Assembly (NCBI RefSeq): GCF_006345805.1
Contig: NC_043000.1
Span: 9,300,001 to 9,364,000, forward strand
DNA: 64,000 bases
Direction of reading: 5' to 3'
Origin: Octopus sinensis
Taxonomy: Eukaryota
Shown: in pieces, positions 5,188 to 59,185 of the stretch
Layout: every line of letters begins with the position of its first letter
How positions within the stretch are numbered: the first letter of the stretch is position 1
The notes under the pieces: generated by a model
The model's database searches: none
Seen by the model: the letters and a program-made list of their open reading frames with translations, nothing else
Told to the model about the DNA's origin: nothing
Translations under genes and position numbers: made by a program

Positions 5188-5290
5188 ATATATATAATAT
5201 ATATATATATATACATACATATATAGGTACACAAATATATACTCATACACAACATACACATATGTACATGAACATATTCAAACACACACA
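4590..5290. repeat. (TA)n/(TACA)n microsatellite field with an internal tandem duplication of about 205 bp
   Basis: The block catatgtacataagtatatacacatacacaacac...aattgggcatatgtagg occurs at about 4786 and about 4993. Confidence 0.85.
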
Positions 5291-5959
5291 TACGTGAGAA
5301 AATGCAGGCATATGTGAAAAAAATAGAAATTATGTTTAAAAAAAAAGAAAAGAAAAAGTCTAAGAAAGTAGATTAAGAAGAAGGAAGGAATGAAGTAGAG
5401 AGAAGGGTGAAAAGAATAAGAAAAATAAGAATAGTAAAGATAAATTTAGGCTAAAAATGTATACACCTAAAAATATTATTAAAGAATGTATTTGTATATG
5501 AATAGAAAAAGAGAAAGGATAAACAAGCATAGATTGGCAATAGTTGATTACGATGATAATAATATAAGTAGTAATATTTATAATAGGTGAGAAATGTGTA
5601 TTTAAGTACACATTGTGAAAAATATATAACAAACAATAAATGTATGTATATGTGTGTGTATATTTTTTAAGTGGTAGTTAAAAAATTAGTCTTAAAAAAT
5701 GTATTGAGTAATAGGGGAAGATATATGGATATATGGTATAGGTTTCACAACTGAAGGTAAAAATATGAAAGGTCATATAATATAAGTGTGGAGTGGGGTT
5801 AGAATGGATACAATAGAGAGTATTAAGGATATGAGTCTAATATAAAGGTGGTAATATTGTAGTGAGATGTATTATACAAAGAACTAAATTATAAGGAGGA
5901 GTAAGAATAAGAAAAAAGTTAGAGGAAGGGGTGTGGAGAGAATTATTTGAGGTTAATAA

Positions 5960-6735
5960 AAAGGGATTTTGACATAAGTTTACAAGAAAAAACTTTTCCA
6001 TCTCTCGAATTTAAAAAAGAATTATTCATCTTCATAATATTGCAAATCTCTTCTAAGTATAAATAACAAATCCTGTTATTATGCCTATAAGAAGGAGCTG
6101 AAGAGATAATTTTCCAAGAAGTCGAGTAATCTATATTACTTCTTTTCTGTTGCCAAACCTTTGTAGATAGACCCGTACTACTTTTTTTTACTAGGGTCGT
6201 TAAAGGATGATTTATGATTATTTAATCGTAATTTAAAAGGGTTTTGAGTACATCCAATATATGTGAATTTAGAGAGATTATGGGTAATAATTGTAGCATG
6301 GTATACTACATTTTTCATTTTACAGTTACCCTCACTGGTATTTGGGTTCCTACAATTAGAATTAGAACTATTATTTGATACTCTATTATGTCTATATGTA
6401 TTAAGGGTAATTGAGGATGTGTAATTTTTACAATTATTGTTATTAGAAAAAAGGAATGATTGGAATTATTGGGAGTTAGCAAGAATATTAGAAAGAGAAC
6501 TTTTATTGTGGAATTGGTTTAGTTTCATATTATCGAATGAGGAGATGATCCGAGATAAGTTTGGAGATACTGAAAATCCAAATCTAATCCATTTGTTATT
6601 GAATATTTTTGCATATCTAGAGTTCTTAAAGTTAACTTTAAGAATGTTTCTAATTGATTTAATAAAATTAGATTTTAAATGTTTAGCAAAAGGAATTATT
6701 ATCCGAATGATGTTATTGCTGTTATCCTTATTGTA
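5960..6735 (-). mobile_element. Penelope-like element 3' fragment (GIY-YIG endonuclease)
   Basis: Minus-strand translation FTYIGCTQNPFKLRLNNHKSSFNDP..STGLSTKVWQQK..WKIISSAPSY..ICYLYLEE is homologous to the C-terminus of ORF 9631-11862. Confidence 0.85.
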
Positions 6736-6743
6736 AACATATG

Positions 6744-6774
<31 letters not shown>

Positions 6775-7129
6775 GGGTGGGAGGTGTTTGTTTTGTGTGT
6801 ATATGTGACTATATCTGTGCGTGTTTATTGATATTTATATAATATAATTTATTCCTTGTGATATATAAATATATGGTATGTGTTTCACAATATTACCTAT
6901 ACCCATATAGAGAGAATGCTTCTTTTATTTTTCCTACTTATATGTTTAAATATCCGTCGGCCAAACCAGTTTTAATTCTTACACAACTACACTCAACACT
7001 ACACAACCATGTTTTTAAATTTTATATTTCATCTTTCACATTCTTTTTCATTAATTTCCGAACTCAAAGCAGTATCCTGCAACATATTTCTTCTTCTGTT
7101 AGAACTTTTCTGATGTTTCCTTCATTTTT

Positions 7130-7233
7130 TGCACTGACGAAAATGGTAATATATCATTAAATTAATTATAATTGATTTAATCTCTTCTATGTTTCTTACA
7201 TGTTAGTGTTACCATTTGAAACGATCGTATGCA
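7130..7233 (+). ncRNA. type I hammerhead ribozyme with intact core
   Basis: tgca-CTGACGA-aaatggtaatat..gtgttaccattt-GAAA-cgatcg-TA-tgca. Stem I is 4 bp, stem II is 12 bp, stem III is the palindrome ACGATCGT, and GUA cleavage falls after 7229. Confidence 0.85.
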
Positions 7234-7321
7234 TGGATTAAAATGTTCATCTCTTCACCTTTAATTGTTTGTTGAGTTTATATAGGACTATGTTCTATAA
7301 ATGTTCATAATACACCTTATA

Positions 7322-7496: not shown

Positions 7497-8665
7497 AGTT
7501 CTACACTGGATTAAGTATTTCCTGGCGAATAGAACACAACATGTTGTAGTTGATGGAGTCCACTCAAGCCCAGCAAAAGTCACCAGCGGTGTTCCCCAGG
7601 GGACTGTCTTAGGTCCGCTACTCTTCATAATTTACATAAACGACCTTTCCAGTGTCGTACATTACTGCAAAGTGAAAATAATTGCTGATGACACTAAGCT
7701 CCAGCAAATCGTCAATGAAGAAGCAGACCGAACTCAACTCCAGTCTGATCTATATGCTGTGAGTCAATGGGCAGACAGAAACAAAGTGCAACTGAACGAG
7801 GGAAAATTTGAGCTGATGCATTTTGGAAGAAATTCCTCACTAAAACAGCCATACTCTCTTCCTTCAGGGGAACCGCTCACAGCCTCTAACAATATCAGAG
7901 ACCTGGGTGTAATTGTTGATGACGATCTCAGTTGGAGTGCACACATCAACAAGAAGGTCGATATAGCTCGTAGGATGAGTTCCTGGATCTTAAGAACTTT
8001 CCGGTCCAGAGAACAAGGTGTCATCATACCACTTTTCTCCTCCTTTGTACGGCCACACCTCGAATACTGCTGCCCACTGTGGTCTCCCCATACAAGACAA
8101 AACATCTTGAGGATTGAATCACCCCAGAGGGTACTCACTAAACGAATTGAAGGCATGGCTGCTCTCGATTATTGGGATCGCCTTAGAGCCTTGAAACTCT
8201 ACACTCTCCAGCGTCGCCGTGAGCGGTACATCATTTGTACGATGTGGAGAATATACCGCCAACTTTGCCCAAACGACCTGAACATTAGCTTCAAGGTTCA
8301 TCCAAGACTGAGACCACGGGCCATACGTCCCCTGCCCAATTCAATATCACAGCATACATGCACACTGCAACATAATTTCTTTTCCTCAACAGGCCCTGCC
8401 CTATTTAACATTGTCCCGAAAGAGATCAAAGAGGAAAAGGATCCCAACAACTTTAAACGGAGTCTGGATAGATTCCTTCAAAGAATACCAGATAAACCAC
8501 CCATAATTGGATACAACTCACCCAACAAAAACTCACTACTTGAATGGACCATAAACAAAACTTGACTTAAACAGGATTCGAATAACCCTATCAGGTGGTG
8601 CTATTAAGTTAGACATGGCCTGGACAAATCTTTGGTCGAAACATATCTAAGTTTATCTAAGTTTT
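7497..8665 (+). mobile_element. 5'-truncated CR1-clade LINE (RT C-terminal half + 3' UTR)
   Basis: SGVPQGTVLGPLLFIIYIND, IADDTKL, RDLGV, VRPHLEYCCPLWSP and LQRRRER; the frame is open to the stop at 8565. The 3' tail is (ATCTAAGTTT)2 and the element is flanked by (TA)n. Confidence 0.92.
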
Positions 8666-8826
8666 ATATATATATATATATATATATAATTGATATAGGA
8701 TATTTTTTTTTTGTTTTGGCGTATCGGGCATTAGAATTTTTCTTCTGCCCTTATCTTGTATATATATATATATATATATATATAAGTATATGAAAGAATG
8801 GAGTTAAACGACTAGTTAACAAATAT

Positions 8827-8921
8827 CCTTTTTTCTCGACATATGTTTCGAAGGCTGCATATTCCTAATTCCGAAGGAATAAGGAGTACATTATGCAGAT
8901 TTCTCATCAGGAAAATCAAGG
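8827..8921 (-). ncRNA. type I hammerhead ribozyme in the inverted Penelope pseudo-LTR
   Basis: Reverse-complement copy of 12410-12504; CTGATGA, GAAA and GUC are intact. Confidence 0.85.
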
Positions 8922-9219
8922 TACTTATGTCGACATCAAAATGCACAAAAAACTTTTGGCTGACCGCTCTCAAGGAGCCCATGGCGATAATGAGTGTCTC
9001 TTTATAAGGAGTGACGTCAGAGTGGCTGAATGTAGAAGAATCTAGAAGGTTCTAAAGGTTCAAGGGTTCAAACGAAGTAGGAGGAGGGAGGCATAAGAAT
9101 AGTAAGGTGAGAGAGTGTAGGTCAAAAGAATGGTGGGTTTAAATTATTTCTTTTATGAAACTACTCAAATATTCATATACAGCTTCGTCCAGATCCTGCT
9201 ACCTTAACAGATACCGCAA

Positions 9220-11862
9220 ATGGAGTTGTTCGAGATTAACGCATCCCTTAAGGACATACCAATACCACCAAAAGAAACCTTCCTTAAGGAAATTGTCAAC
9301 AAAACAAATGCATTCATCAACCGAATTAGATGGCTCGCTTTTTTCCATGATAACGAGGACTTAAAACAGAACGGTACAGAAACATCTTCCGAATATAAGA
9401 AGCTATTCAAGTCGAGGGAGACACCGCCACCCAATCCCAGACGGAAGAAATTTGAGGACGACTAGTGGGACATTGTAAGGAGCGTTAAATTCCGTTAATC
9501 ACCCCTTAGGAATAAACACCTTAGATACCTCAACAAAATTACCAAAGATATAAACAGTTCAGACGCTATCCTGGTCCAATCAGATAAAACCAGGAATACA
9601 TACAAGCTAGCAAAAAACCAGTATTTAGAATTGCTCAAGAAGGAAATACAGAAGAATTACAGAACTACGAATAAGGATACACTTAGAAAAGCCAACTTGG
9701 AAATTAAGAAAATCATGTTTACTCATGGTTTGCAAATGAAAACACAACCACTCAACCCAAAGCAACCAAGATTCATTGTCAAGGACCATAAACCAAACTT
9801 CCAAACCAACCCAGCATTAAGGCTCATTTGCCCTTCTAGTTCCGACATCGGTTCCATCAGTAAGTACATTTTAGATAAATACATACCTAGATTAGTTAAT
9901 AAGCTTAAACTCAACATATGGTCTAACTCCACTCAAGTCGTAGAATGGTTCTCTTCCATTTCTAATAAAAATAGTACTAAATTCATTCAATTCGATATTT
10001 CCAATTTCTACCCTTCGATAAACCCCATCGTGCTCAATAAGGCCCTATGGCACGCACAGAACAAGGCAGGGCTGACAAGGAAGGAAATTAATATAATTCT
10101 AGCCGCTAGAAAATCCTTCATTCAATTCGATGATAAGTTATGGGTCCGTAAGGATACTCCCAACGCGTTCGATGTGCCAATGGGAAGCTCAGATAGCGCA
10201 CAGATAGCCGATTTGGTCGGAATCTATATTCTATATGAATTAGCCGACCAATTCCCGGACATCTGCGGCGGTCTGTATCGAGACGATTGTCTTTTTTACC
10301 TACAGAATGCCCCTAACAGTAGGATACAGAAGACTAAAAGTAGATTAGTTAGATTTTTCAGCAGGATGGGCATGAGCATAATTTTTGACAACGAACTAAC
10401 TAAGGCCAATTTCTTAGATGTTACCCTTAATTTGCATATTAATTCTTACTTCCCTTACCATAAGCCGTCTACGAACCTAAAATATGTCAGTATTTTTAGT
10501 AACCATGCAAAAACTATCACCGATAATTCGGTTAAAAATATATCCTTAAGACTATCAAAGTTATCAGCAAATGTCGACATTTTTAAACAGAAAGCGGAAT
10601 TTTATAATGCCGCCTTGTCAAAGGCCGGTTATAGGGATAAGGTATCATATATCGATCCGGCCCATCCTAAACTAATATCTGCCCATCAAGATAAGATAAC
10701 TTCTAATAATAATATAAATAACATAAATAGTGATTTCAGCTCTAGCAACGTCGACACAAATATATTTTACAATAATAATTTACGGACCAGGGGAGGCCAG
10801 CGTAAACCAAAACCCATTCTACAACACAGAAATATACCCTTTAATGTAAATGTCAACACTCTCAGCCATTCCAAGAACAAAAAAAACTATATTTGGTTTG
10901 TGATTCCTTTCGGGAGACAAATCAGGTCTAATCTCCTTTTACAATTCCGTGAAGCCGTTGCTAAGAATTTTCCTAGGAATTTTAGATACTACTCCACTAT
11001 AAATTCGCATAAAGTAAGAATAACATTCTCAAATACTAAAAATCTTTCGCAGATAATAGCTTCCCACAATAATAAGCTGCTAAATAGGGTCTCATCACCC
11101 ATGAGTAGCGACACCACCCTTACCCATTCCAACGTAACATACAATAATAATTATAACAGAAGTAGTATGGATATTAGCAACATTCATAGCAGCATTAGCG
11201 TTAGCAATAGTAATAATGATAATAACATTAGCCAGATTATTAACAGTGGTGGTGTTAGTGGTAATAGTACCAGCATTCTTAATAACAGTTATATTATTGA
11301 TGATAACAATCGCAGCATTCCTATAGCCAGGGAATTTGCCGACGATATTACAACTAATAGTAATGATAATAAGATGAATAGTATCGTGGCCAAAGCCGGC
11401 AACAATTTTTACACCTATCACAACAATAAAAACTCTGTCTTAGTATCGGAAACCAACCCCAACAGATTAAAGTTCTTATCCAAAAATTCCAAAATTAGAA
11501 ACACCACTTACCAATGCAAAATCTCTTCTGGAACTGATGTCTACTTCTACATTGGCGCAACCTCTTCTAAATTAGCCCAAAGGATATCCAACCATTATTC
11601 CACTTTCAGAGATAAGAGAAAGCAACACAGCACGGGGCTAAGCAAATTAGTCTGGCGTCTGAAGAACAATAACACTACGTTCAAGCTCGAATGGTCCATT
11701 TTGTCGGTGTCCTTCCCGTTTGATAAAGGCAGAAAATGTGGCATCTGTAATTCTGAACTTTTTCGTATTTTGTTCGCCAAAGTCCCTTTAATAAATACAA
11801 TCGTCGAAAGATCCTACAGGTGTTTACACTGGAAAAGACACACCTTTCACTCATATAAATAG
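9220..11862 (+). pseudogene. Penelope-like RT/GIY-YIG polyprotein (about 880 codons, two in-frame stops near 9463 and 9496)
   Basis: ORFs 9220-9465 and 9631-11862 are in the same frame. Motifs are FIQFDISNFYPSI, VPMGSS, LYRDD, NFLDV, then an Asn-rich linker, then TYQC..FYIG..RISNH..CGICNSE. Confidence 0.9.
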
Positions 11863-12409
11863 TGACTAATATAGATAACCCCTCGATTTCCAAAAAAATG
11901 TTTGCTATATTTCACCCCAATAGTCAAAAAGATTTTCTTATATTCCCAATTACTACTATCCATTCTTGCGTTGCCTCTCACCTCGCCCGATTCTTTCTCC
12001 CTTTCGTTATCTACTTTCCTTTCTCTACAGTAAACATAATCGAACACACAGACCTCTCACCTCACAGCTGTCAGTTTTCTGACATCTACCCATCCACAAA
12101 CACAATCACGCATTCAAACACACACATACACACATTAAGACAGTTATATAAGTCACACACACAGGCACTCATTCATAAAAGAAAACATTTAAACCCACCA
12201 TTCTTTTGACCTGCACTCTCTCACCTTACTATTCTTATGCCTCCCTCCTCCTACTTCGTTTGAACCCTTGAACCTTTAGAACCTTCTAGATTCTTCTACA
12301 TTCAGCCACTCTGACGTCACTCCTTATAAAGAGACACTCATTATCGCCATGGGCTCCTTGAGAGCGGTCAGCTAAAAGTTTTTTGTGCATTTTGATGTCG
12401 ACATAAGTT

Positions 12410-12504
12410 CCTTGATTTTCCTGATGAGAAATCTGCATAATGTAGTCCTTATTCCTTCGGAATTAGGAATATGCAGCCTTCGAAACATATGTCGAGAATA
12501 AAGG
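12410..12504 (+). ncRNA. type I hammerhead ribozyme in the Penelope 3' pseudo-LTR
   Basis: ccttgattttc-CTGATGA-gaa..ctgcat..atgcag..ttc-GAAA-catatg-TC-gagaataaagg. Stem I pairs 10 of 11, stem III is the palindrome ACATATGT, and cleavage falls after 12493. Confidence 0.88.
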
Positions 12505-12706
12505 ATATTTGTTAACTAGTCGTTCAACTCCATTCTTTCATATACTTATAATTTTAAAATAAACATACAAATTTCCGCACGAAGACACGTAGTCTATGCC
12601 CTTGGGACGTAGCTTGAACCGTGTTCTTTCTGATGTGAATTTGCTACCCAAGTATCGGTTATCTTTCGAATCATCCTTAATAAGGTAATTCATTCAACTA
12701 CTCAAT

Positions 12707-12802: not shown

Positions 12803-13084
12803 AAAAAAGGAAATGAAGAAAATGCTGACAAAATAATTTAAGTAATTTAATTAGGTGAAGTTCTTTTTACCGGTTGCGCATTTGTTATGCTTATCAAAAG
12901 ATTAGAGTTCCTTTCTGATAGATTTTTTCCTCTTATCTCTTTCCAGATAAGAGGAAAAAAATCTATCAGAAAGGAACTCTAATCTTTTGATAAGCATAAC
13001 AAATGCGCAACCGGTGAAAAGAACTTTCATCTAATTAAATTACTTAAATTATTTTGTCAGCATTTTCTTCATTTCCTTTTTTAT
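12801..13084. repeat. near-perfect hairpin (arms of about 138 bp, 6-nt loop) with a variant HHR-like motif in each arm
   Basis: Arms are 12801-12938 and 12945-13084, loop ctttcc. Motif TTGATAA-gcat-aacaa-atgc-GCAA-ccgg-T(G/A). Confidence 0.9.
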
Positions 13085-15800: not shown

Positions 15801-16377
15801 CAGATAACAAGGAAATAAGAATTTCGCTAAAATCGTTAGAAAACATTTAAAACAAAAAACACCACAGAATAAAGGCAAAAAAAAACAGTAAATAGCATAG
15901 AATAAAATGAAATACAAAAGCATATTTTTATTGAAATTAATTCAATTTCAAAGTTGAATGGATTATATGTCAAAATCAAAACCTTAAGACGTAAACAGTT
16001 TTGAGAAATTTTAGCAAAATTGATTTTAAATTATATTGCTGGGTTTGAAACGTAATTGTTCTTGATGATGTTGTTGTTGTTATTTTTGTTATTGTTACTG
16101 CTGCTTCGGCTTAGCTCCAGGTGACGCCTGAGTAAGCAGACATATGATTAAACTTGTTCCATTTGTGGCCATCACTTCAAATATATTTAGGCCAGCACTT
16201 TTCAACCCTTTCTACTGCAGAGACTTTTTGTTTCACATAATGGCTTTTTACAAACGCCCGTCCGAACGATTTGCCTGGACAGGTGTCTTCTACTATAGCT
16301 TCGGGTCGACCAAAGCCTTGTGAGTGGGTTTGGTTGACGGAAACTGAAAGAAGCCCATTGTGTGTATATATATATAT

Positions 16378-17313
16378 AAATTTAAAAATTGAGGGAGATA
16401 AATTAATATTAATTTTAATATCAATTTAAAACCAGTAGTCCAGCATTCAAAAAATCTGAGGAGTCAGAGAAAATTCAAATATATGTGTATATTAGCAGAG
16501 CTGGCCTGCTAGGTAGCCGGCCAGGATGCTACAAGAAGATCATAAACGATCAAACTACAAGGGAAATTCTCTAGAGGAAGAATTCAGCGAACACCAGAAC
16601 ACCAAAAATCTGAGGAGTCAGAGAAAATTCAAATATATGTGTATATTGTTGGTTCTGGTGTTCACTGAATTCTTCCTCTAGAGAATTTCCCTTGTAGTTT
16701 GATCGTTGATGATCTTCTTCTAGTATTCTGGCCGGCTACCTAGCAGGCCAGCCCTGCCAATATACACATATATTTGAATTTTCTCTGACTCCTCAGATTT
16801 TTTGAATGCTGGACTACTGGTTTTAAATTGATATTAAAATTAATATTAATTTAACTCCCTCAATTTTTAAATATTTAAATAAATACGTTCCCTAGTTGTA
16901 AGCACTATCCGCAGTGAATTATTCACTGCAGCCCTTCGCTTCAGGAGTCTCTCAGCGCGCCAGAACCAAGACATTTGAAATTTTATTCCCGATGTAATCA
17001 GTAAGACTAAGCACGTGTCTGTCTTGACACAGAGAGCTGGGGTTAGTCTTTCAGTTTGCATCACGAGGACCGAATGTGCTGAAGAAGTCACGGACACTTG
17101 AATTATGCAAGTAATTCTTTTGTTAAGACCGAAACCGAGGTATGCATTTAAGTCTGTTATTTATTTAATTTTTCATATGTCCTGCCCGCCAAAGTTGGTT
17201 CTGGTGTTCGCTGAATTCCTCCTCTAGAGAATTTCCCTTGTAGTTTGATCGTTGATGATCTTCTTCTAGCATTCTGGCCGGCTACCTAGCAGGCCAGCCC
17301 TGCCAATATATAC

Positions 17314-17315
<2 letters not shown>
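16378..17315 (+). mobile_element. non-coding retrozyme-like element (inverted copy + 1.2 tandem copies of a 546-nt monomer)
   Basis: 16378-16600 is the reverse complement of about 16651-16873. gttggttctggtgttc recurs at 16648 and 17194. One HHR per monomer. Confidence 0.8.
17072..17149 (+). ncRNA. type I hammerhead ribozyme
   Basis: gaatgtg-CTGAAGA-agtc..gacc-GAAA-ccgagg-TA-tgcattt. Stem I is 7 bp with G.U pairs; GUA cleavage falls after 17142. Confidence 0.8.
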
Positions 17316-17368
<53 letters not shown>

Positions 17369-17594
17369 TGTCTTTGTGTCTGTGTTTGTTCCCCACCCTC
17401 ACTATCGCTTGACAACTGATGTTGGTGTATTTATGTCCGCTAGCGGTTCGGCAAAAGACACCGATAGGATAAGTCCTAGGCTTACAAAAAATAAGCCCTG
17501 GAGTCGATTTCTTTGACTAAAACCCTTTAAGACAGTGCTCCAGCATAACCGCAGTCAAATGACTGAAACGCGTAAAAGAATAAAATTTTAAAAT

Positions 17595-17987: not shown

Positions 17988-18072
<85 letters not shown>

Positions 18073-18097
18073 TAATAATAATAATAATATAATAATA

Positions 18098-20139
18098 AGG
18101 ATTGACTATAAAAAGGCCTTCGACAGTATACCGCATCCATGGATCTTGAGATCGCTGGACATCTTCAAAATTTCCCCTGTGATTTCAAACTTCCTGAAGC
18201 ACAATATGTCGTTGTGGAATACGAATCTCCAATTATACCACTCTAATGGAGTACTTGCCTCAGAAAATATAAACATCAACTGTGGAATTTTTCAAGGTGA
18301 CTCACTTTCACCTTTAATATTCTGCATAGCCCTAATACCCCTTACAAGTGAATTAAACAGAACAGGGTATGGGTATAAAATTGCCAATAAAAAAATAAGC
18401 CATCTATTTTATATGGATGACTTAAAACTTTATGGTAAAGACAATAATGAACTTGAAGGCCTATTGCGCACCGTGAAATCATTCAGCGATGACATCGGGA
18501 TGGAGTTTGGACTTGAGAAGTGTGCCAAGGCCACTTTCCAGAAAGGGAAAGTGAAGACCACAAATTCAGTCGTGTTAGATGTTGACACAGTCATAAGAGA
18601 GCTTGAGCAAGAACAAACATACAAATATTTAGGGATAAATGAAGGCTCTGGTATTCAGCATGCAAGCATGAAAGAGAAAATCAGGAAGGAATGTTATAGG
18701 AGAGTTCGTGCAGTCCTGAAATCTGAACTAAATGCACGTAACAAGGTGTTAGCTATAAATTCCCTAGCAGTTCCAGTTGTTACTTATAGCTACAATGTGT
18801 TGAACTGGAATATGAGTGAAGTAAAGAATATAGATAGAAAAATACGCAAGCTGCTGAGTTGTAATAGGATGCACCACCCAAAGGCAGACGTAGACCGCCT
18901 TTACCTTCCCAGAGCCCAAGGAGGTCGAGGCCTGATCCAATTTGAACTAGCTTACAAAACAACCACAATTGGACTGGCCAAATATCTCGAAATATCGAAT
19001 GACTGGATGCTAAAGCTCGTGGAAAATCACGAGAGACGAAAGAAGCTTCATTCTTTCATCAAGGAAAGCAAAAAATTTGCTATTGATCTCGTGCAGGATA
19101 CCCAAACTGAACAACCCGAGGGAAGTACGGCAACTATTGCTGCAAAGAAGGTGAAAATGATGGCAATGAAAAAAGCGCACGAGCAATTGGCTGATAGGTG
19201 GGAGGAGAAACCTCTGCACGGCAAATATGTGACCCGCAGCAAACAAGCTGATGTTGACCAGAAGCAAACCCATCAGTGGCTGCGGAGCTCAGGGCTAAAA
19301 GCAGAGAGCGAAGGTTTCATCCTGGCTGCTCAAGAACAAAGCCTATCAACCCGGAACTACCAGGCCAATGTGATGAAAAATGGAGCAGACCCAAAATGTC
19401 GATTCTGCAACGACATGATTGAAACAGTGGACCACCTAATCTCTGGATGTAAAGTCTTAGCACCAGTGGAGTATAAATTAAGACATGACAGAGTTGGCCA
19501 ATACCTCCACTGGCTAATAAGTCGGCATTACAATATCAAAACTGCCGACAAGTGGTATAATCACCACCCTCAGGCTGTAACTGAAGGAGAAAATGTAACC
19601 ATTCTGTGGGACTTTCCAGTACATACAGACCGAACCATCAAGGCCGATAAACCAGATATTGTTGTGAAAGACCAAAACAATAAAGTTTGCTTATTGATCG
19701 ACATGAGCATCCCTTGTGATCATAATATCTCAGCGAAAGAGTTTGACAAGCTCAGAAAATATAAAGACCTACTCATTGAAATTGAGAAAATGTGGCATCT
19801 CAAGGCGGTTACAATACCAGTGATCGTAGGAGCACTAGGAATGATCAAGAAGGGAACCGAAAATTATATGAGAATGATCCCTGGCTTACCATCCCTGCAA
19901 GAAGTGCAAAAGATTGTCTTAACTGGTACATCACACGTATTGAGAAGAGCATTGTCGATGTGAGAACTGTTGCTGCTCATGCATTTTAATTTAACTTTAA
20001 AAAAAAAAAAAAAAAAATTAACGAACTACTGAGTTTGGTTTAATAGCCTACCAATATACACTATGAGTTTCTTTGCCCTAGGAGTCGGGAAGACACCCGG
20101 CAAGAAATGGAAGAAAATTTGAAAGAAGAAAAAAAAAAG
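18098..20139 (+). mobile_element. 5'-truncated R4/Dong-type non-LTR retrotransposon (RT, CCHC, restriction-like endonuclease) inserted in (TAA)n
   Basis: IDYKKAFDS, GIFQGDSLSP, FYMDDLKLY, YKYLG, CRFC..ETVDHLISGC, RHD, KPDIV..LLIDM..K..KY. (TAA)n flanks both sides. Confidence 0.93.
18146..19963 (+). CDS. R4/Dong RT-RLE protein, C-terminal 605+ aa, uninterrupted frame without a true start
   Basis: ORF track; the frame stays open upstream to the truncation point. Confidence 0.8.
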   Translation: MRSLDIFKISPVISNFLKHNMSLWNTNLQLYHSNGVLASENININCGIFQGDSLSPLIFCIALIPLTSELNRTGYGYKIANKKISHLFYMDDLKLYGKDNNELEGLLRTVKSFSDDIGMEFGLEKCAKATFQKGKVKTTNSVVLDVDTVIRELEQEQTYKYLGINEGSGIQHASMKEKIRKECYRRVRAVLKSELNARNKVLAINSLAVPVVTYSYNVLNWNMSEVKNIDRKIRKLLSCNRMHHPKADVDRLYLPRAQGGRGLIQFELAYKTTTIGLAKYLEISNDWMLKLVENHERRKKLHSFIKESKKFAIDLVQDTQTEQPEGSTATIAAKKVKMMAMKKAHEQLADRWEEKPLHGKYVTRSKQADVDQKQTHQWLRSSGLKAESEGFILAAQEQSLSTRNYQANVMKNGADPKCRFCNDMIETVDHLISGCKVLAPVEYKLRHDRVGQYLHWLISRHYNIKTADKWYNHHPQAVTEGENVTILWDFPVHTDRTIKADKPDIVVKDQNNKVCLLIDMSIPCDHNISAKEFDKLRKYKDLLIEIEKMWHLKAVTIPVIVGALGMIKKGTENYMRMIPGLPSLQEVQKIVLTGTSHVLRRALSM

Positions 20140-28835: not shown

Positions 28836-31800
28836 TCATAGAATCATAGTCAAGGTGGCTTCGTCATTCATACGTGCCATCCTTGCTATATTTACCCATC
28901 TTTTTTTAAAACATTCACTAGACAAAACTTGCCTCTCTACTCTCACTTTCCTCTTCAAGTGATACTTGAAGAAGTTGATGAGAGATTGACCAGAGAGGAA
29001 AGTGTTTGTCTCTAATCCTTTCAGGCGCGTCCACCAGATACATTCTTTCGCCATAGCCACAAGTATGATAAAAATAGCTCTTCCTTCCCGTTTGAAGAAA
29101 GGAGGCGTGACGATATTAACGATAGACTCGGCTGATAAACCGACACGTCCCACACGTGACAGCAGTCATTCGACATAAGCCCACAGGTCGGAGATTGTTG
29201 GACACTGCACGATTGCGTGCAGAGCGGATTCGTCGCTCTGCCCGCATCTCGGGCAGGTCGGCCCCGTGTTTCTCGAGCCATGCCTATAGAGCTTATCCCG
29301 AACGGGTAGCGCTTCTCGGTAGCACCGCCAGGCCAGGGATCTCTGGAAGTTGTCCATAGGTCCCGGCCCGAAAGTCGTTTCAAACAGGCGGGTCAGGTAT
29401 TCCTCGTCGACGCCTAGGTTTGCCCCAAGATCGTCGTCGTACCTCCCCTCCACTAATCCCCTATAGAATGCTTTGGTCGTGTTGAAGTCACTGAAGGTCG
29501 ACCCGGAACGGCAGAGTTGCTTGAGAGCAACGCGACACTCGCGGTGCCATTCGCCCTTCCTCGGCCTCTTTTTGATCCACGGCTGCAGTTCGGTCATGGA
29601 GACGAGCTGCGGGAACGCGTGCCTCACAAACAGCGACCACACCTGTTCACCGTCGTCTACATAGAGTCGGAGACGTCGCAGTATCAGCGTGTGTCTGCGC
29701 ATCATCAACCATGGCATACCCAGCCCTCCTTTTAACGGGTGTTGACAGCAAATGGATCGCCTGACCATCAGGACGCATCATTTCCACAAGAAGCGGAAGA
29801 GAATGCGTTCTAGTTTGGTGATGGTAGGGTCGGGACAAGGTACGACGATCAGGCGGTAGTAGATGATGGACGTGATGTATGTGTTCGCCACTTCCGCCCG
29901 ACCTTTTAGGGACAGTTTCCTCTCGGCCCATTGCTGGGCGAGAGTGACCACCCTACTCGTTATCTCGTCCCAGTTCTTCTCCATTTGGAGGTCCGGACCG
30001 AACCAGACCCCGAGCAACTCAACCGGGCCGTCCGTCCAGCGTCCCACGACGGAGGTACTGGTGGACGGCATGGGCTTGCTTCTCCAGGTCCCGAGCCGCA
30101 AGCCCACTGACTTTTCCCCGGTTGATTTTTGCTCCTGTCACCGCTTCGTGGTCTTTCAGTGTCTCGCCGACCAGCTCGATGTGCTCGTGGCTTGACACTA
30201 TGACGGTGACGTCGTCCGCGTATGCAGACACGCTCGTCCCGCATCCCAATTCTCGCGGGATGCCCCTCAGAAGCGACGAGAGGGGGCATCTCTGACGGAC
30301 CGAACGTGCGATGTCAAAGGGTCTCGATAGATGTCCATTTACGCGAATTACCGAACGGATGCCTCTGTACAAAGCGGCTATCCAGCCGCGGAAGACGGGA
30401 CCGAAGCCAGCCGCTCTGAGGACTGCCTCCAAGTATCGATGGTCTACCCTATCGAAAGCTTTCGATTGATCCAAGTTGATCAGGGCCCCACCCATGCCAG
30501 GTTCCTTAACTACTCTGTCTATGATGTAGCGCATCAGATGGAGGTTGTCATGGATGCTCCGGCCCGGCACGGCGCACGTTTGTGCGTTGTCGACCAGTTT
30601 CTCGATGACAAGCGCCAACCTCTTGGCTAACACCTTTGTCATAATTTTCAGGTCTGCATTGAGCAGAGTGATTGGTCTAAAGTTATCTATAATGTTCCCC
30701 TTGTTTGGATCTTTCTTCAACAGCGTTACGGCTCCTCGACTCACAAAACCGGGTATGCTCCCGTTTTGCTGCCATTTGCAGTATACCACTGCCAAGACGT
30801 CTCCAAACAAGTCTGGCATACAATTGTAAAACTCGTAGGGCAGACCATCCAAACCTGGCGATTTGTCCCTCGAGCATTCTGCCATCGCGTCCCGCACATC
30901 CGCCGCCGTGATGGCACCTTCGCAGCCTTCTGCCTCTCTTGCCGAGAGTCGTGGTAGGCTGTGCAGGTAGGCACTGAAGTCCACCCTGCGTTCACGCTCG
31001 CCACTCGTCCCGTACAGTCGGGCAAAGTGCCGCTGAAATGTCTCGTACATCTTGCTGGGCTCGAGCAATTCGCGCCTTTGTTCATCTACCAGAGACCGAA
31101 TGGTGGCTTTGTCGCCCTTCTGCGCCTCCGCCACCCAGGCCTCCCTCGCGGCTCCAACACCTTCCATCCTTTGAGCACGCATCCTAGCCCTGACAGCACA
31201 CCCTTCGTGTTTGGCGTTGAAGTGTTGGTCAAGGGCCACCTCGCCGCTAAAACGTCGGATGTGATGCCGCTTCTTATTGCCTCTTCTAACTTCTTAACTA
31301 ACTCACCCTCTACTCTATTCTATCCGGCTATGCCTTGCTATATCTAATTGCTTCCGCTTTTACTGCTCTCTTGAGGGCGAACCACCATTTGTTGTTGACA
31401 ATGGCTCCCGTTAAAGCCCTTTTTACTAACGTGTTGATTCTGTCTCTGAAAACTTGTCTGGACGGGAATGATGCGTTCAGTTTCCAGTAACCAGGGCCCT
31501 GTCTATGTGCCTTATCTAAGTCTAGCGTACACGTCACGAATTTGTGATCTGTGTAGCTGACTGTGTGGAATTGTGGACATCCTAAGCTATCCCTGTCTAC
31601 TGTCCTACACAGTATCCTATCTAGATACGATCTCGACGACCCACTGCGGTTGCTCCATGTCCACGTTGGTGCATTTGGGTGGTGGAGTCGGTACCTGTCT
31701 GACAGTTGGAATCGTCTGAGCAGGTCTCTGAAGCATTTGTATCCCCTTCTGTTTTTGTCTCTCCCCACATAGTCTAGATGCGTGTCCAAGGTAGCATTCC

Positions 31801-32224
31801 AATCCCCCACTAAAAGTAAAGGACAAGACGTTCCCAGTAATATTTCTAGACGTCGAAAGAAATCCGGCCGACCTGTTAAAGGCGGTGCGTAGACTGATAC
31901 GAGTCGAAAAGCGCACCTATTGCTGCCGTCGACATCCAGAACGACCAGTCTACCCTCCGGGTCTACGAATATCGTCTTGACTTCGAGATCCAGGCTCTTG
32001 TGAAAAAGTACCGCGGTGCCACTACCGCCCATCCTCGGAAGACAGGGAGCAAAATAAATGTTAAACTGTCCGCCAAACATGGACTTTAGGGCCCGTGGCT
32101 CGTGGAGTCTGGTCTCACTTATGGCTATGATTCCCAAATCGTGTGACTTGATGTCATTTAGGAGGTATCCTTGTTTCCAAGGAGACCCCAAGCCACGCGC
32201 ATTCACACAACCAATCTTGACCAT
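28836..32224 (-). pseudogene. Tx1 ORF2 (AP endonuclease, RT, zinc finger), frameshifted
   Basis: MVKIGCVNARGL, ISETR, GDWN, SYLDR, TDH, KSPGLDG, FRPITLLNAD, LDQSKAFDRV, AYADD, GGLG, CPRC..ESALHAIVQC. A deletion lies between the QGCPLS-equivalent and YADD. Confidence 0.92.
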
Positions 32225-32274
32225 GATTCTATTGGGGTGTGTGCTTTAAAACACAAAAAGGAAAGTACAGAGAG

Positions 32275-34373
32275 TTACTTACTTGTGTCGAAAGTTTTGG
32301 CTTCCTCGTTCTTTGATGTGTCTTGGAGGAGGTTTTTATAGAGTTTTTGTGAGAGGTATCTTTGGAACCCCCCAACAGCATTTGGAAAGAGGGCTTTGAG
32401 TGTGTGGTGTTGTGTTTGTGTGATGTGTAGTATTTTGATGTGTTTGGGTGGTGTAGTGCGAGGATGGTTGTTAGTTTTGAAGTCATCTTCACAGATGTTT
32501 GTGTGGGCTGTGATGTACTCCATTAATTTGGAGTCTTTTGTGTCTATCGCTGATAGCATTGTGTGTGTTTTTGTGGTGTTGGTACTTGTTTGGTTGTGTA
32601 TGGAGCTTTCAGGGTTCAGGTATCTCCCTGCTTTGGTTGCGTTTTCTTGTTTGTTTTTTTTTATCTTTTTCTTTTACCCCCGGTGGCTATTTACCATTCT
32701 GTCGAACTTTCATCGTTAGATGAAAAGTCTGACGAATCAGCAGGGGGCAAGGGTAAAGCATCTGGGTCTGTTTGTGCGGTTGTAGATATTGTTGTGGTGT
32801 GCGGGGGGGGGTTGGTGTGGTGATAGTCTCTCCTACATCCTTGGTGCTTGTCTTCTTCGTTGTTATTCTCGGTGTTGGAATTGGTTTAGTTGTTGTTGGT
32901 GGTGATCATTCTGTTCTTGGCGCAGGTGGTTGTATTGTTTGGTTGGGTTGGTCCGTTCTTTGTTGTTTTTCATGTATTTCTGCATACAGCTTCTTGATTA
33001 GCCGTCCATATTGTGGTGTGGGCAATAATGCTGGCTTTTGTGGTTTTTCCTGTGGCTGTTGTTGTCGTTGTTTCGCGGCAGATTTGCACTCCTTTTTGAG
33101 GTGTGCCTCACTGCCACATGTATAGCAGCGTGGCCTTCTGCCCTCGACATCCGCAAGATGTACGTGGGTGGGAATTTTGTTAATGTCGTCTTGGCTTATG
33201 TGGAAGAGAATTTCCATTCTCTTTCCCACCCAGTCCTTGTGTTTCGAAACAGTTATATCCATGATGTTTATGTCCTCCATTTTGGATGTTATGGCGGTTG
33301 TTATCCATAGTGTGGTTGTTACTTGCGGGACATTATTGATAATGACCTTTGTCACCTTCTGGCCAAGGTAACTGGGTGTCATTGCTAGCTCCTCTGAATG
33401 AAGAGTTAGCGTTGAGAATTGCTTTGCCAACACTTCATTCTGAAAAACCACCTGTACGTGGGCGAACTTGTTCGACCAAGTCACATACTCCTTGTGTCCC
33501 CAGATGGCGCGTAGGCACTTTTCTATTTTGTCCGTGCTTGCTTTTTCTGGACTTTTAGTTGTGTTGTTTGTTATTTTATATACAATCGTTCTCTTTTTTT
33601 CCTCATTCAGTATGTGTTGTGGTATGTGAAAGTGTATTTTGCCGTTTTCTTCCGTGATTAGGGCTCTGCAGTCTTTTATTTGCTGTACAGTAAAAAATAC
33701 TCTTGTCATTTTTTCTTTTATCGCCTCGGCGAAGTTTGTTGTTGTTTTGTTATTGTTGTTACTGCTGGTGGTGTTGGTGTTGATGGCAGGAGTGTGGGTT
33801 GTGGGTATATTAGGTTTGTGGTTGCTGATTATGCAACTGGCAAGAGGTGGAAAATTGTCTGCGTAATTTGGTCCTGCATTAGCGCAAATTTCGGCAGCTC
33901 GTTTGATTGTCGGTGTTATTTTTTTTCTCACCTTCACTTGTTGGTGATGGAGTGAACGGTGGCTGAAGGGAATTGTTGTTGTTGTTGTTGTTATTGTCGT
34001 TCTTGGTGACGGCGGTGGTATTAGTAGTAAGGGAGGCATTGACGGCACGGTCTTTAGTGGCGGTGATGGTGATGTTGGTATTGTTATTGTTGTTGGTAGT
34101 GGTGTCGTTAGCAGAGATAGCAGTTGCACTAGCAGATGCTGCCATGGTGGTGGTGTCGGTGTTGATGGTGGAATCACTGGTGGCGGTGCTTGGCCTTGCG
34201 ACCTTTGTTTTGTATTTGTTGCTGTTGTCGATGCTGATGGTGGTGGTGGTGGTGGTGGTGGTGTAAATAGTGTTTACACAGTCAAGTTCAGCGCTTGGTG
34301 ACAGGAAATCTTGCTTTTTTGTTTTGGCGTCACGCTTCAGTTGCGCCTCAGCCTCGTGGTGACCAGTAGCCAT
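32275..34373 (-). pseudogene. Tx1 ORF1 (gag-like, CCHC zinc knuckle), frameshifted
   Basis: ORF pieces 33879-34373, 32906-34177 (CYTCGSEAHLKKEC) and 32275-32559, directly upstream of ORF2. Confidence 0.75.
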
Positions 34374-40092: not shown

Positions 40093-41975
40093 AAGAAACA
40101 GCTACGGTGCACTGTAGGATAGGGCCACTCCTTGAAAAGGATGGCACACTCACAGGAAAACCAATGAGGGTAAGTGAAATACTGAATGAACAATTCAAGA
40201 GTGTTCTCACTCCACCCCTTGGGCATTTCCAAATCAGCAATCCAACTGACTTCTTTACCACTGCAGATATAGAATCAGAGGCGGCGACGATAAATTACAT
40301 CGATATAAAGGAAGACGATGTAATAAAGGCTATAGATGAAATGAAAACAGACTCAGCTATTGGCCCCGATGGATTCCCGGCAATCCTCCTAAAAGTATGT
40401 AAGAGAGTCCTAGCAAGACCACTGCAGTTCCTCTTTCAGAGCTTCCTTGCAGCTGGCAAACTTCCAAGAAAACTGAAGGAAGGTAAAATATGCCTTATTC
40501 ATAAAGGAGGTAGCAGAGCGGAGGCCCAAGAACTACAGACCTATCTCTCTGACCTCACACATCAGCAAGGTCATGGAACGAATGGTCAGAAGGAAACTAA
40601 TCACCTTCCTTGAAGAAAATGACTTGCTGCCTGACACCCAACATGGTTTCCGACCAGGAAGAAGCTGCTTAACTCAGCTCCTGCAGCACTATGACTGGGT
40701 GCTGAAACAACTGCTCAACCACTCAAATGTGGAAGTCATATATCTCGACTTCGCAAAGGCCTTCGATAAAGTCGATCATGGAATGATATGTCACAAGCTG
40801 CGTGATCTTGGCATAGTTGGAAAACTAGGAGAATGGCTTCATGACTTTCTGAAGAATAGAAGTCAGTGAGCGGTGTTCCGCAGGGCACTGTTTTGGGACC
40901 ACTACTGTTCTTAATGGCCCTCTCAGACATGCCCTCAGCCACGCAGAGAGCCACAATCACAAGTTATGCAGATGATACAAAAGTTTCACAGGCAATACAG
41001 AACCCTGAAGACACTAAGCACCTGCAATGTGAGCTGGACGAAATATACAAGTGGGCTGAAAAGAATAGCATGCAGTTCAATGCTGAAAAGTTTCAAGCTT
41101 TATACTATCAGCATGCAAAACTGAATGCAATACCCAATGAATACACTGGACCCGGAGGGATTGCAATCCCAGAGGCACAATCAGTGCGTGACCTGGGTAT
41201 TCACATGAGTGATGACGCGACCTTTCATGTACATGTTGCTAAACTGACAATGAAATGTAGACGGCTGGCTGGATGGATTCTTAGAACCTTTAGAAAAAGA
41301 GAACAAGAAGCCATGATGGTCCTCTGGAAGACACTTGTCCTAAGCCACTTTGACTATTGCTCTCAGCTATGGTCACCATCCAGTGTCAAGTTGATCACAG
41401 AACTTGAGGCGATCCAACGAAGCTACACGAAGGAGATAGCCTCTGTGCAGCATATGAGCTACTGGGAGAGACTCAAGAGATTAAAGCTCTATTCCCTGGA
41501 GCGTAGGCGAGAAAGATATGCCATAATATATATCTGGAAGATCCTGGAAGGTCTTGTCCCAGACTTTGGCATCGAGAGTCACACAAATGCCAGAATCGGA
41601 CGCCACTGCGTAGTACCAAGGACTCCAAATTTGCCATCAAGATGTAGGACAAGATATTGTGATAGCCTGGGCTTCAGAGGCCGACGGCTCTTCAATATCC
41701 TCCCGAAGAACCTGAGGGACCTGCATGGTGTAGATGCGGATGTCTTTAAAGTAGGACTGGATCTCTTCCTGTCAGGTGTCCCGGATGAACCAACTTCACG
41801 GCAGGAGGTGCAGATGAGGGCAGCTGCATCGAACTCTCTCATGCATCAGATGGCGTTTGCTAAAAAGCATCCGTGAGGTAAAACCGTGTAGCAAACCAAA
41901 TGGCGGTGCCCCAGCATGGCCACAGCTCATTAGCTGAAACTGGAAAAATCAAAATCAAAATCAAAATCAAAATCA
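40093..41975 (+). mobile_element. 5'-truncated CR1-clade LINE with frameshift and internal deletion
   Basis: GPDGF, QHGFRPGRSC, YLDFAKAFDKV, SGVPQGTVLGP, YADDTK, LERRRER. The 3' tail is (AAAATC)n. Confidence 0.93.
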
Positions 41976-48629: not shown

Positions 48630-49260
48630 TCAAGCGTGGCTATATGGTAAGAAGTTTGCTTCCAACCACATGGCTCTGGGTGCAGTCCCTCTGCGTGACA
48701 TCTTGAGCAAGTGCCTGCTACTATAGACTCGGGCCGACCAAAGCCTTGTGGGTGGATTTGGTAAACGAAGACCGAAAGAAGCCCGTCATATATATATTCT
48801 TTTATTTGTTTCAGTCATTTGACTGCGGCCATGCTGGAGCACCGCCTTTGAACAAATCGACCCCTGGACTTATTCTTTATAAGCCTAGTACTTATTCTAT
48901 CGGTTCTTTTGCCGAACCGCTAAGTTACGGAGACGTAAACGCCTTAACATCAGATACTTACTTGCCCAAGATGCCACGCAGTGGGACTGAACCCGGAACC
49001 ATGTGGTTTGTAAGCAAGCTACTTACCACACAGCTATTCCTGCCCCTATCAATATATATATTAATGCCTTTGTGTCTGTGTTTGCCCCCACCACTGCTTG
49101 AAAACCGGTGTTCGTATGTTTACGTCCCAGTTCGGAAAACGAGAGATCGATAGAATGAGTATCAGGCTTAAAAAAAGTTTTAGGGTCTATGTGTTCGACT
49201 AAAGCCCTTCATCGCGGTGCTCCAGCATGATCACAGTAAAATGTCTGAAAGTACTAAAAG
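48630..49260. mobile_element. nested SINE family A copies (minus copy inside a plus copy)
   Basis: Plus head 48630-48790, minus internally deleted copy 48800-49035, plus 3' half 49070-49260. Confidence 0.75.
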
Positions 49261-55676: not shown

Positions 55677-56309
55677 TATTTGAAAAACAAAGCCGAATCC
55701 GGTAGTATAATATCGGCAAACTTCCATCGATATTAGCGAACTTATTAATAAGGAAATACTTTCGTTATCAAACATTTTCGTTCTTTGAATATTTTCCTAA
55801 TTAAATAAATTTACCTTTAAATATAAACATATGTACTGAAGCGTTGGTTGTTTATATTCATATTGTAGCGATGAATATATTCAAACATACATATTTTTAA
55901 AAAATCTATACGCAGAACAGAAAATCAATAGATATTAAAATAAACTTTTTTTTATAATAAAAATAAATGAATTTTCTTTTCTTAATTTTAAAACAGCAAA
56001 ACAGTGATATACATAAAGAATGAGAAACATGTTTGTTACATTTAGGAATAAGAATGTTTTGAAATTCTCAACTAATTCTTATGCATCATCGCATCATTTC
56101 CTCTCAGATTCTTTTATGTAACTATTAATTAGTTCTTCTGAGATACCCTACATTGGCTTTGAGTTTATCTTGTTGGTATGTAATCGAAAGGACTCAATAT
56201 ATTTACTGAGTATGCATGAAGATCAGTCGTGATTGGCGATCTTGCTATTGCAGTTCATAAAACGTTGGTGAAATGCGTGCGACACCTACATGTGTGTGTC
56301 TGTGTTTGC

Positions 56310-56345
<36 letters not shown>

Positions 56346-56370
56346 GTGCGTGTGTGTGTGTGTATGTGTG

Positions 56371-56631
56371 TGGAGGCGCAATGGCCCAGTGGTTAGGGCA
56401 GCGGATTCGCGGTCGTAGGATCGCAGTTTCGATTCCCAGACCGGGCGTTGTGTGTGTTTATTGAGCGAAAACACCTAAAGCTCCACGAGGCTCCGGCAGG
56501 GATGGGTGGCGATCCCTGCTGACTCTTTCGCCAGCGGGGTTGCCTCATTTGAAGGCTAAAACAATGCGAAGTGCATTGTGACCAGCGATGTGTTGCAACA
56601 TCTGATAGCCTGGTCGGTCACGGTGACGGTG
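56371..56631 (+). mobile_element. SINE with family C head and a different tail (duplicate at 58096-58357)
   Basis: tggcccagtggttag A box, tttcgattcc B box, tail gtgaccagcgatgtg..ctggtcggtcac(ggtgac)2. Confidence 0.85.
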
Positions 56632-56638
56632 ATATATA

Positions 56639-56690
<52 letters not shown>

Positions 56691-56910
56691 AGTCAATTTA
56701 GGGTAGCAAAAAAATTCAATAGAAATTTATCGCTACCAGCGGCCTGGTGGAAAAGAGAAAATAGTCATCGACTAAATATATAAATATAACAATTTAGGAG
56801 TGACCCTAACAGGTCATTCGTCCACCAGAAAGAGCAGCCATAACTCACACCGCCAAGTAGTAGTAATTCAGAAATTAGGTGAAAATTTAAAAACATTTAC
56901 CCTAATTCAT

Positions 56911-57010
56911 CTTTTAGACGTTGCAACGTTTCTGTGTCATTAATGATTAAATTAGCTTAATTAAATTAAATTAAGCTAATCTACCATAGGTTACACTTCA
57001 TCAGTAAAAA
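56911..57010 (-). ncRNA. type I hammerhead ribozyme (duplicate at 58633-58732)
   Basis: Reverse complement of 57179-57278. Confidence 0.82.
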
Positions 57011-57178
57011 ACCTGGGAGAGACAAATATACACGAGTCGCAATAATTCTGAGATTGAATCGGCAGTTTATATTTACTGCTGATAAGTTTGGCGCGAATAC
57101 GTCAGTCTTGAAAATTTTAAGACAGATATTCCGTAGGCATCGATACAGACGCCTCGTGTATATTTGTCTCTCCCAGGT

Positions 57179-57278
57179 TTTTTACTGATGAAGTGTAACC
57201 TATGGTAGATTAGCTTAATTTAATTTAATTAAGCTAATTTAATCATTAATGACACAGAAACGTTGCAACGTCTAAAAG
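57179..57278 (+). ncRNA. type I hammerhead ribozyme with long stem II (duplicate at 58901-59000)
   Basis: ttttta-CTGATGA-agtgt..tagattagcttaatt/aattaagctaattta..acaca-GAAA-cgttgcaacg-TC-taaaag. Stem III is the palindrome ACGTTGCAACGT; cleavage falls after 57272. Confidence 0.82.
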
Positions 57279-57399
57279 ATGAATTAGGTAAATGTTTTTA
57301 AATTTTCACCTAATTTCTGAATTACTACTACTTGGCGGTGTGAGTTATGGCTGCTCTTTCTGGTGGACGAATGACCTGTTAGGGTCACTCCTAAATTGT

Positions 57400-57525
<126 letters not shown>

Positions 57526-57751
57526 AGTACTTCATATATCCGAAAAGAAGCACACTCTAAAAACATAATATTTAAAAGGTTATTAATAGTTATCGACGAG
57601 CTAACATGGCAGTCCAGAAAAATAGGACGAATGCTGCCGTTGATTAGCTCCAAGAGGCCATCGCCTCTAGCTAGCTATGTGACACACGAACTTGTGTCCA
57701 TTATAACCTTCGAACAGGGGAGGTCAGCCGCTTCCCCTTGCCGGTCTGGCA

Positions 57752-57794
57752 TCTACAGACTAGTTTCAGGGTATTTGCCCCTTATCAATGTAGA
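57752..57794 (-). ncRNA. type I hammerhead ribozyme, U3-A8 core variant (duplicate at 59476-59518)
   Basis: Minus strand tctaca-TTGATAA-gggg-caaata-ccct-GAAA-ctag-TC-tgtaga. Stem I is a perfect 6 bp, stem II is 4 bp, stem III is the palindrome ACTAGT; the duplicate has GUA. Confidence 0.82.
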
Positions 57795-58021
57795 GCAGCT
57801 GAACCAGGCAGAGAGTTACTATTTCGCTCTTATAAGGGATTAGCTATATAGGTGACTCGTCAAACTCATCTGGCGGAGGCACATAACAGAAAACATTCTA
57901 AATATATATACATGTGTGTGTGTGTGTTTGTTTGTGCGTGTGTGTGTGTGTGCGTGTGTGTGTGTGTATGTGTGCGTGCCTGCGTTTGTGTTTGTTTGTG
58001 TGTGTGTGAGTGTGTGTGTGC

Positions 58022-58064
<43 letters not shown>

Positions 58065-58353
58065 ATATGTGCGTGTGTGTGTGTGTGTATGTGTGTGGAG
58101 GCGCAATGGCCCAGTGGTTAGGGCAGCGGATTCGCGGTCGTAGGATCGCAGTTTCGATTCCCAGACCGGGCGTTGTGTGTGTTTATTGAGCGAAAACACC
58201 TAAAGCTCCACGAGGCTCCGGCAGGGATGGGTGGCGATCCCTGCTGACTCTTTCGCCAGCGGGGTTGCCTCATTTGAAGGCTAAAACAATGCGAAGTGCA
58301 TTGTGACCAGCGATGTGTTGCAACATCTGATAGCCTGGTCGGTCACGGTGACG

Positions 58354-58401
<48 letters not shown>

Positions 58402-59120: not shown

Positions 59121-59185
<65 letters not shown>

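Follow-up and report, generated by a model that had tools for sequence, protein, structure and literature searches.

A non-coding 546-nt hammerhead repeat in the Octopus sinensis genome, probably a passenger of Penelope-like elements

A partial tandem preceded by an inverted, 5'-truncated head is the standard structure of Penelope-like element (PLE) insertions (PMC8557442, PMC3846280), and both features have been described together with the (TA)n bias of such insertions (PMC8557442). Hammerhead ribozymes (HHRs) with a very short, palindromic helix III, as in the motif reported below, are described as acting in dimers and as poor cutters (PMC4209133). A model in which circular RNA serves as the template has been in print since 2014 (PMC4209133) and is also found in PMC7229834, while a PLE origin of animal retrozymes is put forward in a bioRxiv preprint (10.64898/2026.07.22.740005). 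In experiments with a purified lizard PLE protein, AT-rich DNA was cut, both strands were elongated, copying began at internal sites of the RNA, and uncleaved RNA was accepted (PMC11167929). In the literature consulted, the link between retrozymes and PLEs has so far come from co-occurrence and from pLTR similarity; how PLE tandems and inverted heads are built, and whether retrozyme circles serve as templates, is the question that bears on the family described here. For octopuses, the supplement of PMC8557442 holds Naiad families, with the present family not among the rows shown, and a 2026 repeat paper on Octopus vulgaris counts 31 recently active Penelope-like families, the word ribozyme being absent from its available text (PMC13282606). 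Our literature search, with Repbase-type libraries and preprint supplements outside its scope, returned no report of a cephalopod retrozyme or of this family, which may already be catalogued under another name.

The window analyzed here comprises 64,000 nucleotides of O. sinensis (assembly GCF_006345805.1, contig NC_043000.1, positions 9,300,001 to 9,364,000); all coordinates below refer to it. It carries an insertion at 16380-17319 which is very probably a copy of a high-copy, non-coding 546-nt HHR repeat and a likely passenger of an autonomous PLE, i.e., a non-autonomous PLE or animal non-LTR retrozyme. The element behaves like a non-autonomous PLE, and both the structural features of that class and the unit-level features of retrozymes are found in it.

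A previous sequence-only reading of the locus had described a 546-nt period with a restart, an inverted copy and a re-copied piece of 44 nt, all of which were recovered. The full non-coding unit (16648..17193, plus strand, 546 nt, 39% GC) is followed by a partial second unit (17194..17319, plus strand), and period comparison of 16648-16773 with 17194-17319 gives 97% identity over 126 nt. The restart covers unit positions 1 to 117-126, as its final 9 nt are equally readable as target (TA)n; at its end, 5 alternating TA letters agree exactly with the target, or 13/14 letters if one mismatch is allowed. The inverted, 5'-truncated arm (16380..16600, minus strand) corresponds to unit positions 225 to 5 and is recorded as an exact match of 221 nt, while comparison of arm and unit counts 7 differences in 220 nt, all of them substitutions. 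With mismatches, its alignment reaches 16367 (95% over 234 nt, against 16652-16885). The three arms of the insertion show 3, 5 and 6 differences per 106 nt, with 1 in the next 114.

At the inner joint, junction comparison identifies the letters 16601..16603 (no strand assigned) as a short tandem slip, an 8-mer being repeated, which precedes a jump. Behind it lies the re-copied piece of 44/45 nt (16604..16648, minus strand, unit positions 155 to 111), which matches 16758-16802 in reverse complement at 45/45 letters; this supports the template jumps proposed earlier. This piece spans the AT/AC-rich site where the right end of the direct arm falls. Both arms stop at unit position 1-5, and their inner ends are located 52 and 56 nt beyond the HHR cut site, within 4 nt of each other. 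The unit folds better than shuffles in linear form (z -3.4), and so does the permuted monomer as a circle (z -3.1, 40 shuffles, 59% paired, branched), a fold suggested by the sequence-only reading.

A type I HHR motif of the PLE/Hydra build with a near-palindromic helix III is predicted at 17073..17148 (plus strand) by descriptor match and shuffles, 3/5000 dinucleotide shuffles of the unit matching the descriptor. Its landmarks are CTGAAGA at 17079, GAAA at 17131 and the cleavage triplet GTA at 17140-17142, with the predicted cut between 17142 and 17143. Helix I comprises 6-7 bp and helix III 2 bp with a near-palindromic loop; the long helix II spans 45 nt with one unpaired letter on each side. 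Neither the restart nor the inverted arm reaches the motif, and the whole insertion carries one HHR, in good agreement with the earlier count of one per unit. Due to this single motif, we infer that the locus cannot itself release a unit-length monomer RNA. Position 17078 is A in more than 99% of the family's summed contig depth (not taken as copy number), against a G.U next to the core at this locus; with the A, the G.U becomes A-U and helix I is strengthened. Rfam gave no match at all in the window at its gathering scores, and relaxing the threshold to E=10 near the insertion yielded 13 weak matches, all hairpin or microsatellite and none a hammerhead; exact HHR patterns gave 0 matches in viral contigs and 0 in metagenome contigs. 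The 101-nt stretch with the HHR folds no better than shuffles (z 0.46), the active HHR fold lies 5.5 kcal/mol above the local minimum, and the self-duplex of helix III is predicted at -6.6 kcal/mol. The predicted HHR likely needs a dimer to work.

ORF, Pfam and PLE-protein comparisons revealed no coding remnant in the insertion, which also holds for the earlier statement that the unit lacks an ORF. No ORF of at least 100 aa overlaps it, the longest stop-to-stop frame inside (97 aa, minus strand) has no Pfam match, and none of 51 Hydra-type PLE proteins matched below E=0.4. The RT plus GIY-YIG endonuclease ORF, hallmark of autonomous PLEs, is absent from the insertion. ARAGORN found 0 tRNA genes and simple Pol III box A/B patterns are lacking in the unit; a promoter scan built for bacteria, and not apt for animal DNA, likewise gave 0.

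The insertion splits a SINE. The 5' half of this host (16276..16362, plus strand) is 83-94% identical to the left halves of 6 other long matches in the window, and its 3' half (17368..17570, plus strand) is 72-77% identical to other window copies. The left part of the target (TA)n (16363..16379), delimited by sequence and junction comparison, overlaps an AT-only stretch of the element, and the right part, (TA)n(TG)n, is read from the sequence at 17320..17367. Comparison with empty SINE copies places the target in the (TA)n inside the SINE: among nine other left-half matches in the window, four reach a right half over 22-52 nt of (TA)n/(TG)n, one has a 281-nt gap containing another SINE, and four are without a true right half nearby, while the half-to-half gap at the insertion amounts to 1006 nt. 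The host SINE, which we take to resemble octopus repeats, is an older repeat with many copies in the window, its halves being 72-94% like other copies. As the arms differ by 3-6/106 nt at this level of SINE similarity, the insertion is younger than its host, and the earlier view of a discrete, younger element splitting a SINE at its (TA)n stands. Three contigs of one sequencing run (X1, see below), which may include this locus, have an (AT)n loose end at the matching unit position. Elsewhere, at 48795-49050, a SINE copy is located in the (TA)n of a copy of the same SINE in opposite orientation, which indicates that the SINE microsatellite is a repeated landing site.

Parts of the unit are present in 20/24 listed public runs; none of the unit-bearing runs is on record as RNA, which says nothing on expression. 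Family contigs were compared in 4 of the 24 runs, the DNA-like X1 and X2 and the runs X8 and X17, which are RNA by guess. The contigs fitting the unit number 1005 and 826 in the two DNA-like runs and 15 and 16 in the two putative RNA runs; contigs show neither ends, strand nor circularity, and rare forms are dropped from them. The unit is a high-copy, protein-free family. Its head-to-tail joint, 17193>16649, was found in X1 (2 contigs), X2 (3) and X17 (1), i.e., in 3/4 runs examined, and in X8 the end of the unit appears as loose letters before 16649. Thus, the 546-nt period belongs to the family and not to the locus alone. The share that runs out of the unit into dissimilar sequence amounts to 0 in X1 and X2, 0.27 in X8 and 0.6 in X17, where the loose ends of X8 and X17, among those listed, look like diverged sister families. 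The sequence-only reading had named copies running into an RT/GIY-YIG ORF as the sign of a plain PLE end; among 140 loose ends, the 24 shown give no indication of an ORF, for whose proof 30 letters would in any case be too short.

The pieces listed are 32 of 1891. Among the listed joints there is one other inversion joint, 16721/17038, in X1 and X2, located elsewhere in the unit, and a shorter tandem joint, 17126>16673; consequently, other family copies break elsewhere. The inner joint of the present locus is not among the listed joints of the runs examined, contigs dropping rare forms. Of the variable places, 40 are listed and 4 are not; at 9 of those listed, the unit departs from the X1 majority letter. 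Record 11 of X17 belongs to a diverged sister family: this contig of 586 nt (depth 123) has a head-to-tail joint, and its length would be that expected of a closed loop of ~556 nt with 31-letter words. Diverged letters similar to this sister family also occur in X2 and X8.

At 8781-12705 and 56690-57415, the window contains two more HHR elements flanked by (TA)n, each combining an inverted head with a direct arm. The first, a putative Hydra-type PLE, is composed of a 379-nt inverted arm (98% to 12172-12550) and a 3.5-kb direct arm, with an HHR at 12421. Its ORF from 9220 has two early stops and Asn-rich inserts and shows the Hydra marks RW, DKT, CxxC and CxH, as given in PMC8557442. Pfam and PDB profile searches left this ORF unclassified, one homologue having a weak GIY-YIG match (E 0.012), and the Hydra label is thus a tentative one based on motifs. 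The same 9 letters open (9160) and close (12697-12705) the direct arm, which hence represents exactly one turn; the point of permutation falls within an intron-like GT..AG stretch in the 5' UTR. The 5' end of the direct arm is not mirrored in the inverted arm. A neighbouring ORF in the window has its best named relatives in Argonauta hians. Directly after the (TA)n flank of this PLE, a long near-perfect inverted repeat with ~100-nt arms was noted by eye (12860-13080).

The short HHR element at 56690-57415 occurs again at 58410-59137, doubled by a 1.72-kb tandem duplication (56291-58000 / 58011-59722, 98%). Its inverted and direct arms, placed in (TA)n, are 99% alike, and its helix III is a 12-nt palindrome. 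About 83 nt of the inverted arm are absent from the direct arm; this arm was therefore not copied from the direct arm, which favours separate priming on RNA. An HHR motif at 7134 (plus strand) with a 12-bp helix II lies between (TA)n runs, no second arm being found, and near it is a decayed Hydra-like ORF fragment (6654-6030, minus strand, within 5200-7310). Similarity of the unit to the 7134 element (65% over 103 nt, E 0.024) is AT-rich and was treated as chance. Helix II of the window's other HHR elements spans 54-77 nt. LINE-type RT fragments are dispersed at 7498-8565, 18071-19963, 29166-34273 and 40860-41876, and 29166-34273 (minus strand) holds near-complete LINE pieces with zinc knuckle, endonuclease, RT and zf-RVT.

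For comparison at a larger scale, the best 77 distinct metagenome loci of Hydra type (L001-L077) were taken from 466 stretches. A sense-strand HHR with palindromic helix III is found in 55/77 of them, with 28 distinct loops, vs 0/385 shuffles; the cut is GTA in 45/55, helix II is flanked by unpaired letters as here in 27/55, and a U.U opposition is found at this place in 26/55. At the DNA level, the unit matched neither these loci nor the ends of the neighbouring PLE (best E 0.6) nor the window's other HHR elements. ORF-bearing loci with a head-to-tail repeat of 2.0-3.3 kb make up 44/77, some of which are assembler loops, and 8 contigs close on themselves. The more-than-unit copy had been read as the expected product of a circular or multimeric RNA; partial tandems being standard in PLEs and head-to-tail repeats this common, such a copy does not by itself point to a circle. 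The PLE signature, which explains the inverted head and the (TA)n target, had not been named.

The insertion could have arisen as follows. The GIY-YIG endonuclease of the partner would cleave the SINE's (TA)n on both strands. One DNA end would pair with a TA-like site inside the RNA (second-unit position 117-126) and be extended over 1.2 units without a stop at the HHR site, which would have been uncut or re-ligated, and the other DNA end would prime near unit position 225 and give rise to the inverted arm. Copying would halt at unit position 1-5, where the shorter copy would slip and jump once (the 45-nt piece) before both copies were joined head-to-head. The HHR itself would act only as a dimer, cutting multimeric transcripts of other loci. 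As for the template, we lean towards a linear RNA of more than unit length whose 5' end lies near unit position 1. Such an RNA fits somewhat better because the arms end within 4 nt of each other, and it must have been uncut or re-ligated, as the longer copy crossed the HHR site. Five outer ends are scorable in three window elements: three share 4-5 exact alternating TA letters with the target, a 4-letter match being available at 1.3-2.4% of positions, and the other two fall in AT-only stretches without an exact 4-nt overlap. In vitro, purified PLE protein primed without homology (PMC11167929), which counts against the TA-pairing step. Further points against the preferred explanation are that no autonomous partner was matched among the neighbouring PLE and the 77 Hydra-type loci, that the mechanism is drawn from one locus and two neighbours, that Rfam misses the HHR, that its active fold lies above the minimum, and that the inner joint is unlisted. 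A fixed 5' end is not general, since the other listed inversion joint lies elsewhere in the unit.

Instead of a linear RNA, the same kind of element could have been reverse-transcribed round a 546-nt circular RNA arising from HHR cleavage and ligation (PMC4209133, PMC7229834), a possible but less probable course of events. The copy exceeds one unit and crosses an intact HHR site, the circular fold of the monomer is better than that of shuffles, the direct arm of the neighbouring PLE makes one full turn on the same 9 letters, the 586-nt contig from a putative RNA run would have closed-loop length, and tandem type I HHR repeats of coral, mussel and axolotl yield abundant circles (PMC7229834). 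None of these points separates circle from tandem, and assembly-graph loops also come from tandem DNA or multimeric RNA. A circle is an endless template, yet the arms break off 52 and 56 nt beyond the cut site, a coincidence with a chance of ~9 in 546 that is seen at one locus, and the inverted arm jumps at its stop like a polymerase at a template end. Furthermore, minimal PLE hammerheads cleave poorly even as dimers (PMC4209133), and insertion in vitro did not require cleavage (PMC11167929). The coincident arm ends suit a linear RNA and are explained least by the circle, while fold-back explains them too: self-priming of the first cDNA (or antisense RNA) would give the inverted head and the 45-nt piece, with the left end joined by microhomology. 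We regard this as unlikely, although it accounts directly for the common end point of the arms, the direct arm contains all of the inverted sequence, the three arms are consistent with one template and ~1.6% decay each, and self-priming has been proposed for head-to-head PLE palindromes (PMC3846280). At 56690-57415, the same layout includes inverted-arm sequence missing from the direct arm, the inverted arm of 8781-12705 fails to mirror the 5' end of its direct arm, and purified PLE protein extends both strands (PMC11167929).

That the insertion is merely a truncated pseudo-LTR of an autonomous PLE, with no separate family behind it, seems improbable. 5' truncation affects most PLE copies, hammerheads commonly occur as opposite-strand pairs with a spacing of 100-700 bp (PMC4209133), and the unit probably descends from such PLE ends (10.64898/2026.07.22.740005); however, it closes on itself after 546 nt without an ORF, its joint recurs in 3/4 runs, and the loose ends shown give no hint of an ORF, as far as 30 letters can tell. 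Inverted duplications are a known artefact of assembly and of long reads, and the inner joint of this locus is absent from the listed joints of the runs examined. Nevertheless, a fold-back artefact is highly improbable here: the 7 differences between the arms over 220 nt are all substitutions, the two flanks together restore a single SINE, independent runs contain the tandem joint, and two further elements have the same layout.

Under the preferred reading of a PLE passenger, the locus itself is an ordinary dead-end copy. The significance lies in the family, since a short, ORF-free, high-copy repeat with the full PLE insertion signature constitutes direct, single-locus support for the retrozyme-PLE link. 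It is also a convenient test bed, as the ends of all copies on the 546-nt unit can separate a circular from a linear template. More speculatively, and rather doubtfully, a cephalopod family of HHR circles of 546-556 nt might be copied into DNA by the enzyme of a Hydra-type PLE, with short TA pairings within the circle priming synthesis at the two cut ends. If true, the family's thousands of insertions, mapped by their start and stop on the unit, would prove for the first time from genomic data that PLE partial tandems derive from circular templates.

Three known systems are closest. Non-autonomous Chlamys elements such as MRC1 are likewise non-coding PLE passengers that form pLTRs and head-to-tail insertions (PMC8557442). 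They are algal, mostly without hammerheads, and match the 3' ends of their partners (PMC8557442), whereas our unit matched no partner examined. Insertions of endonuclease-bearing PLEs of the Hydra clade (PMC8557442, PMC3846280) share with the locus the inverted 5'-truncated head, the partial tandem, staggered outer ends, the (TA)n target, no clear target duplication, a palindromic two-pair helix III and the GTA cut. Differences are the missing RT-GIY-YIG ORF, the lack of a sequence match to the Hydra elements examined and the length of helix II, 45 nt here vs 11-25 nt in the 55 HHR-bearing metagenome loci. Animal non-LTR retrozymes (PMC7229834; 10.64898/2026.07.22.740005) resemble the unit in being non-coding, below 50% GC, head-to-tail and high-copy with one type I HHR. 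The circle-yielding retrozyme units of these papers are shorter than 546 nt (170-400 nt), and the HHR predicted here differs by its long helix II and the lack of a loop I. The preprint's rule for active elements is two consecutive HHR units (10.64898/2026.07.22.740005); with 1.2 units and one HHR, this locus is filed as an offspring copy and not as an active retrozyme. The consensus lengths given in the same preprint (51-972 bp) include that of the present unit, and, as here, non-LTR retrozymes have been proposed to be PLE passengers (PMC7229834; 10.64898/2026.07.22.740005).
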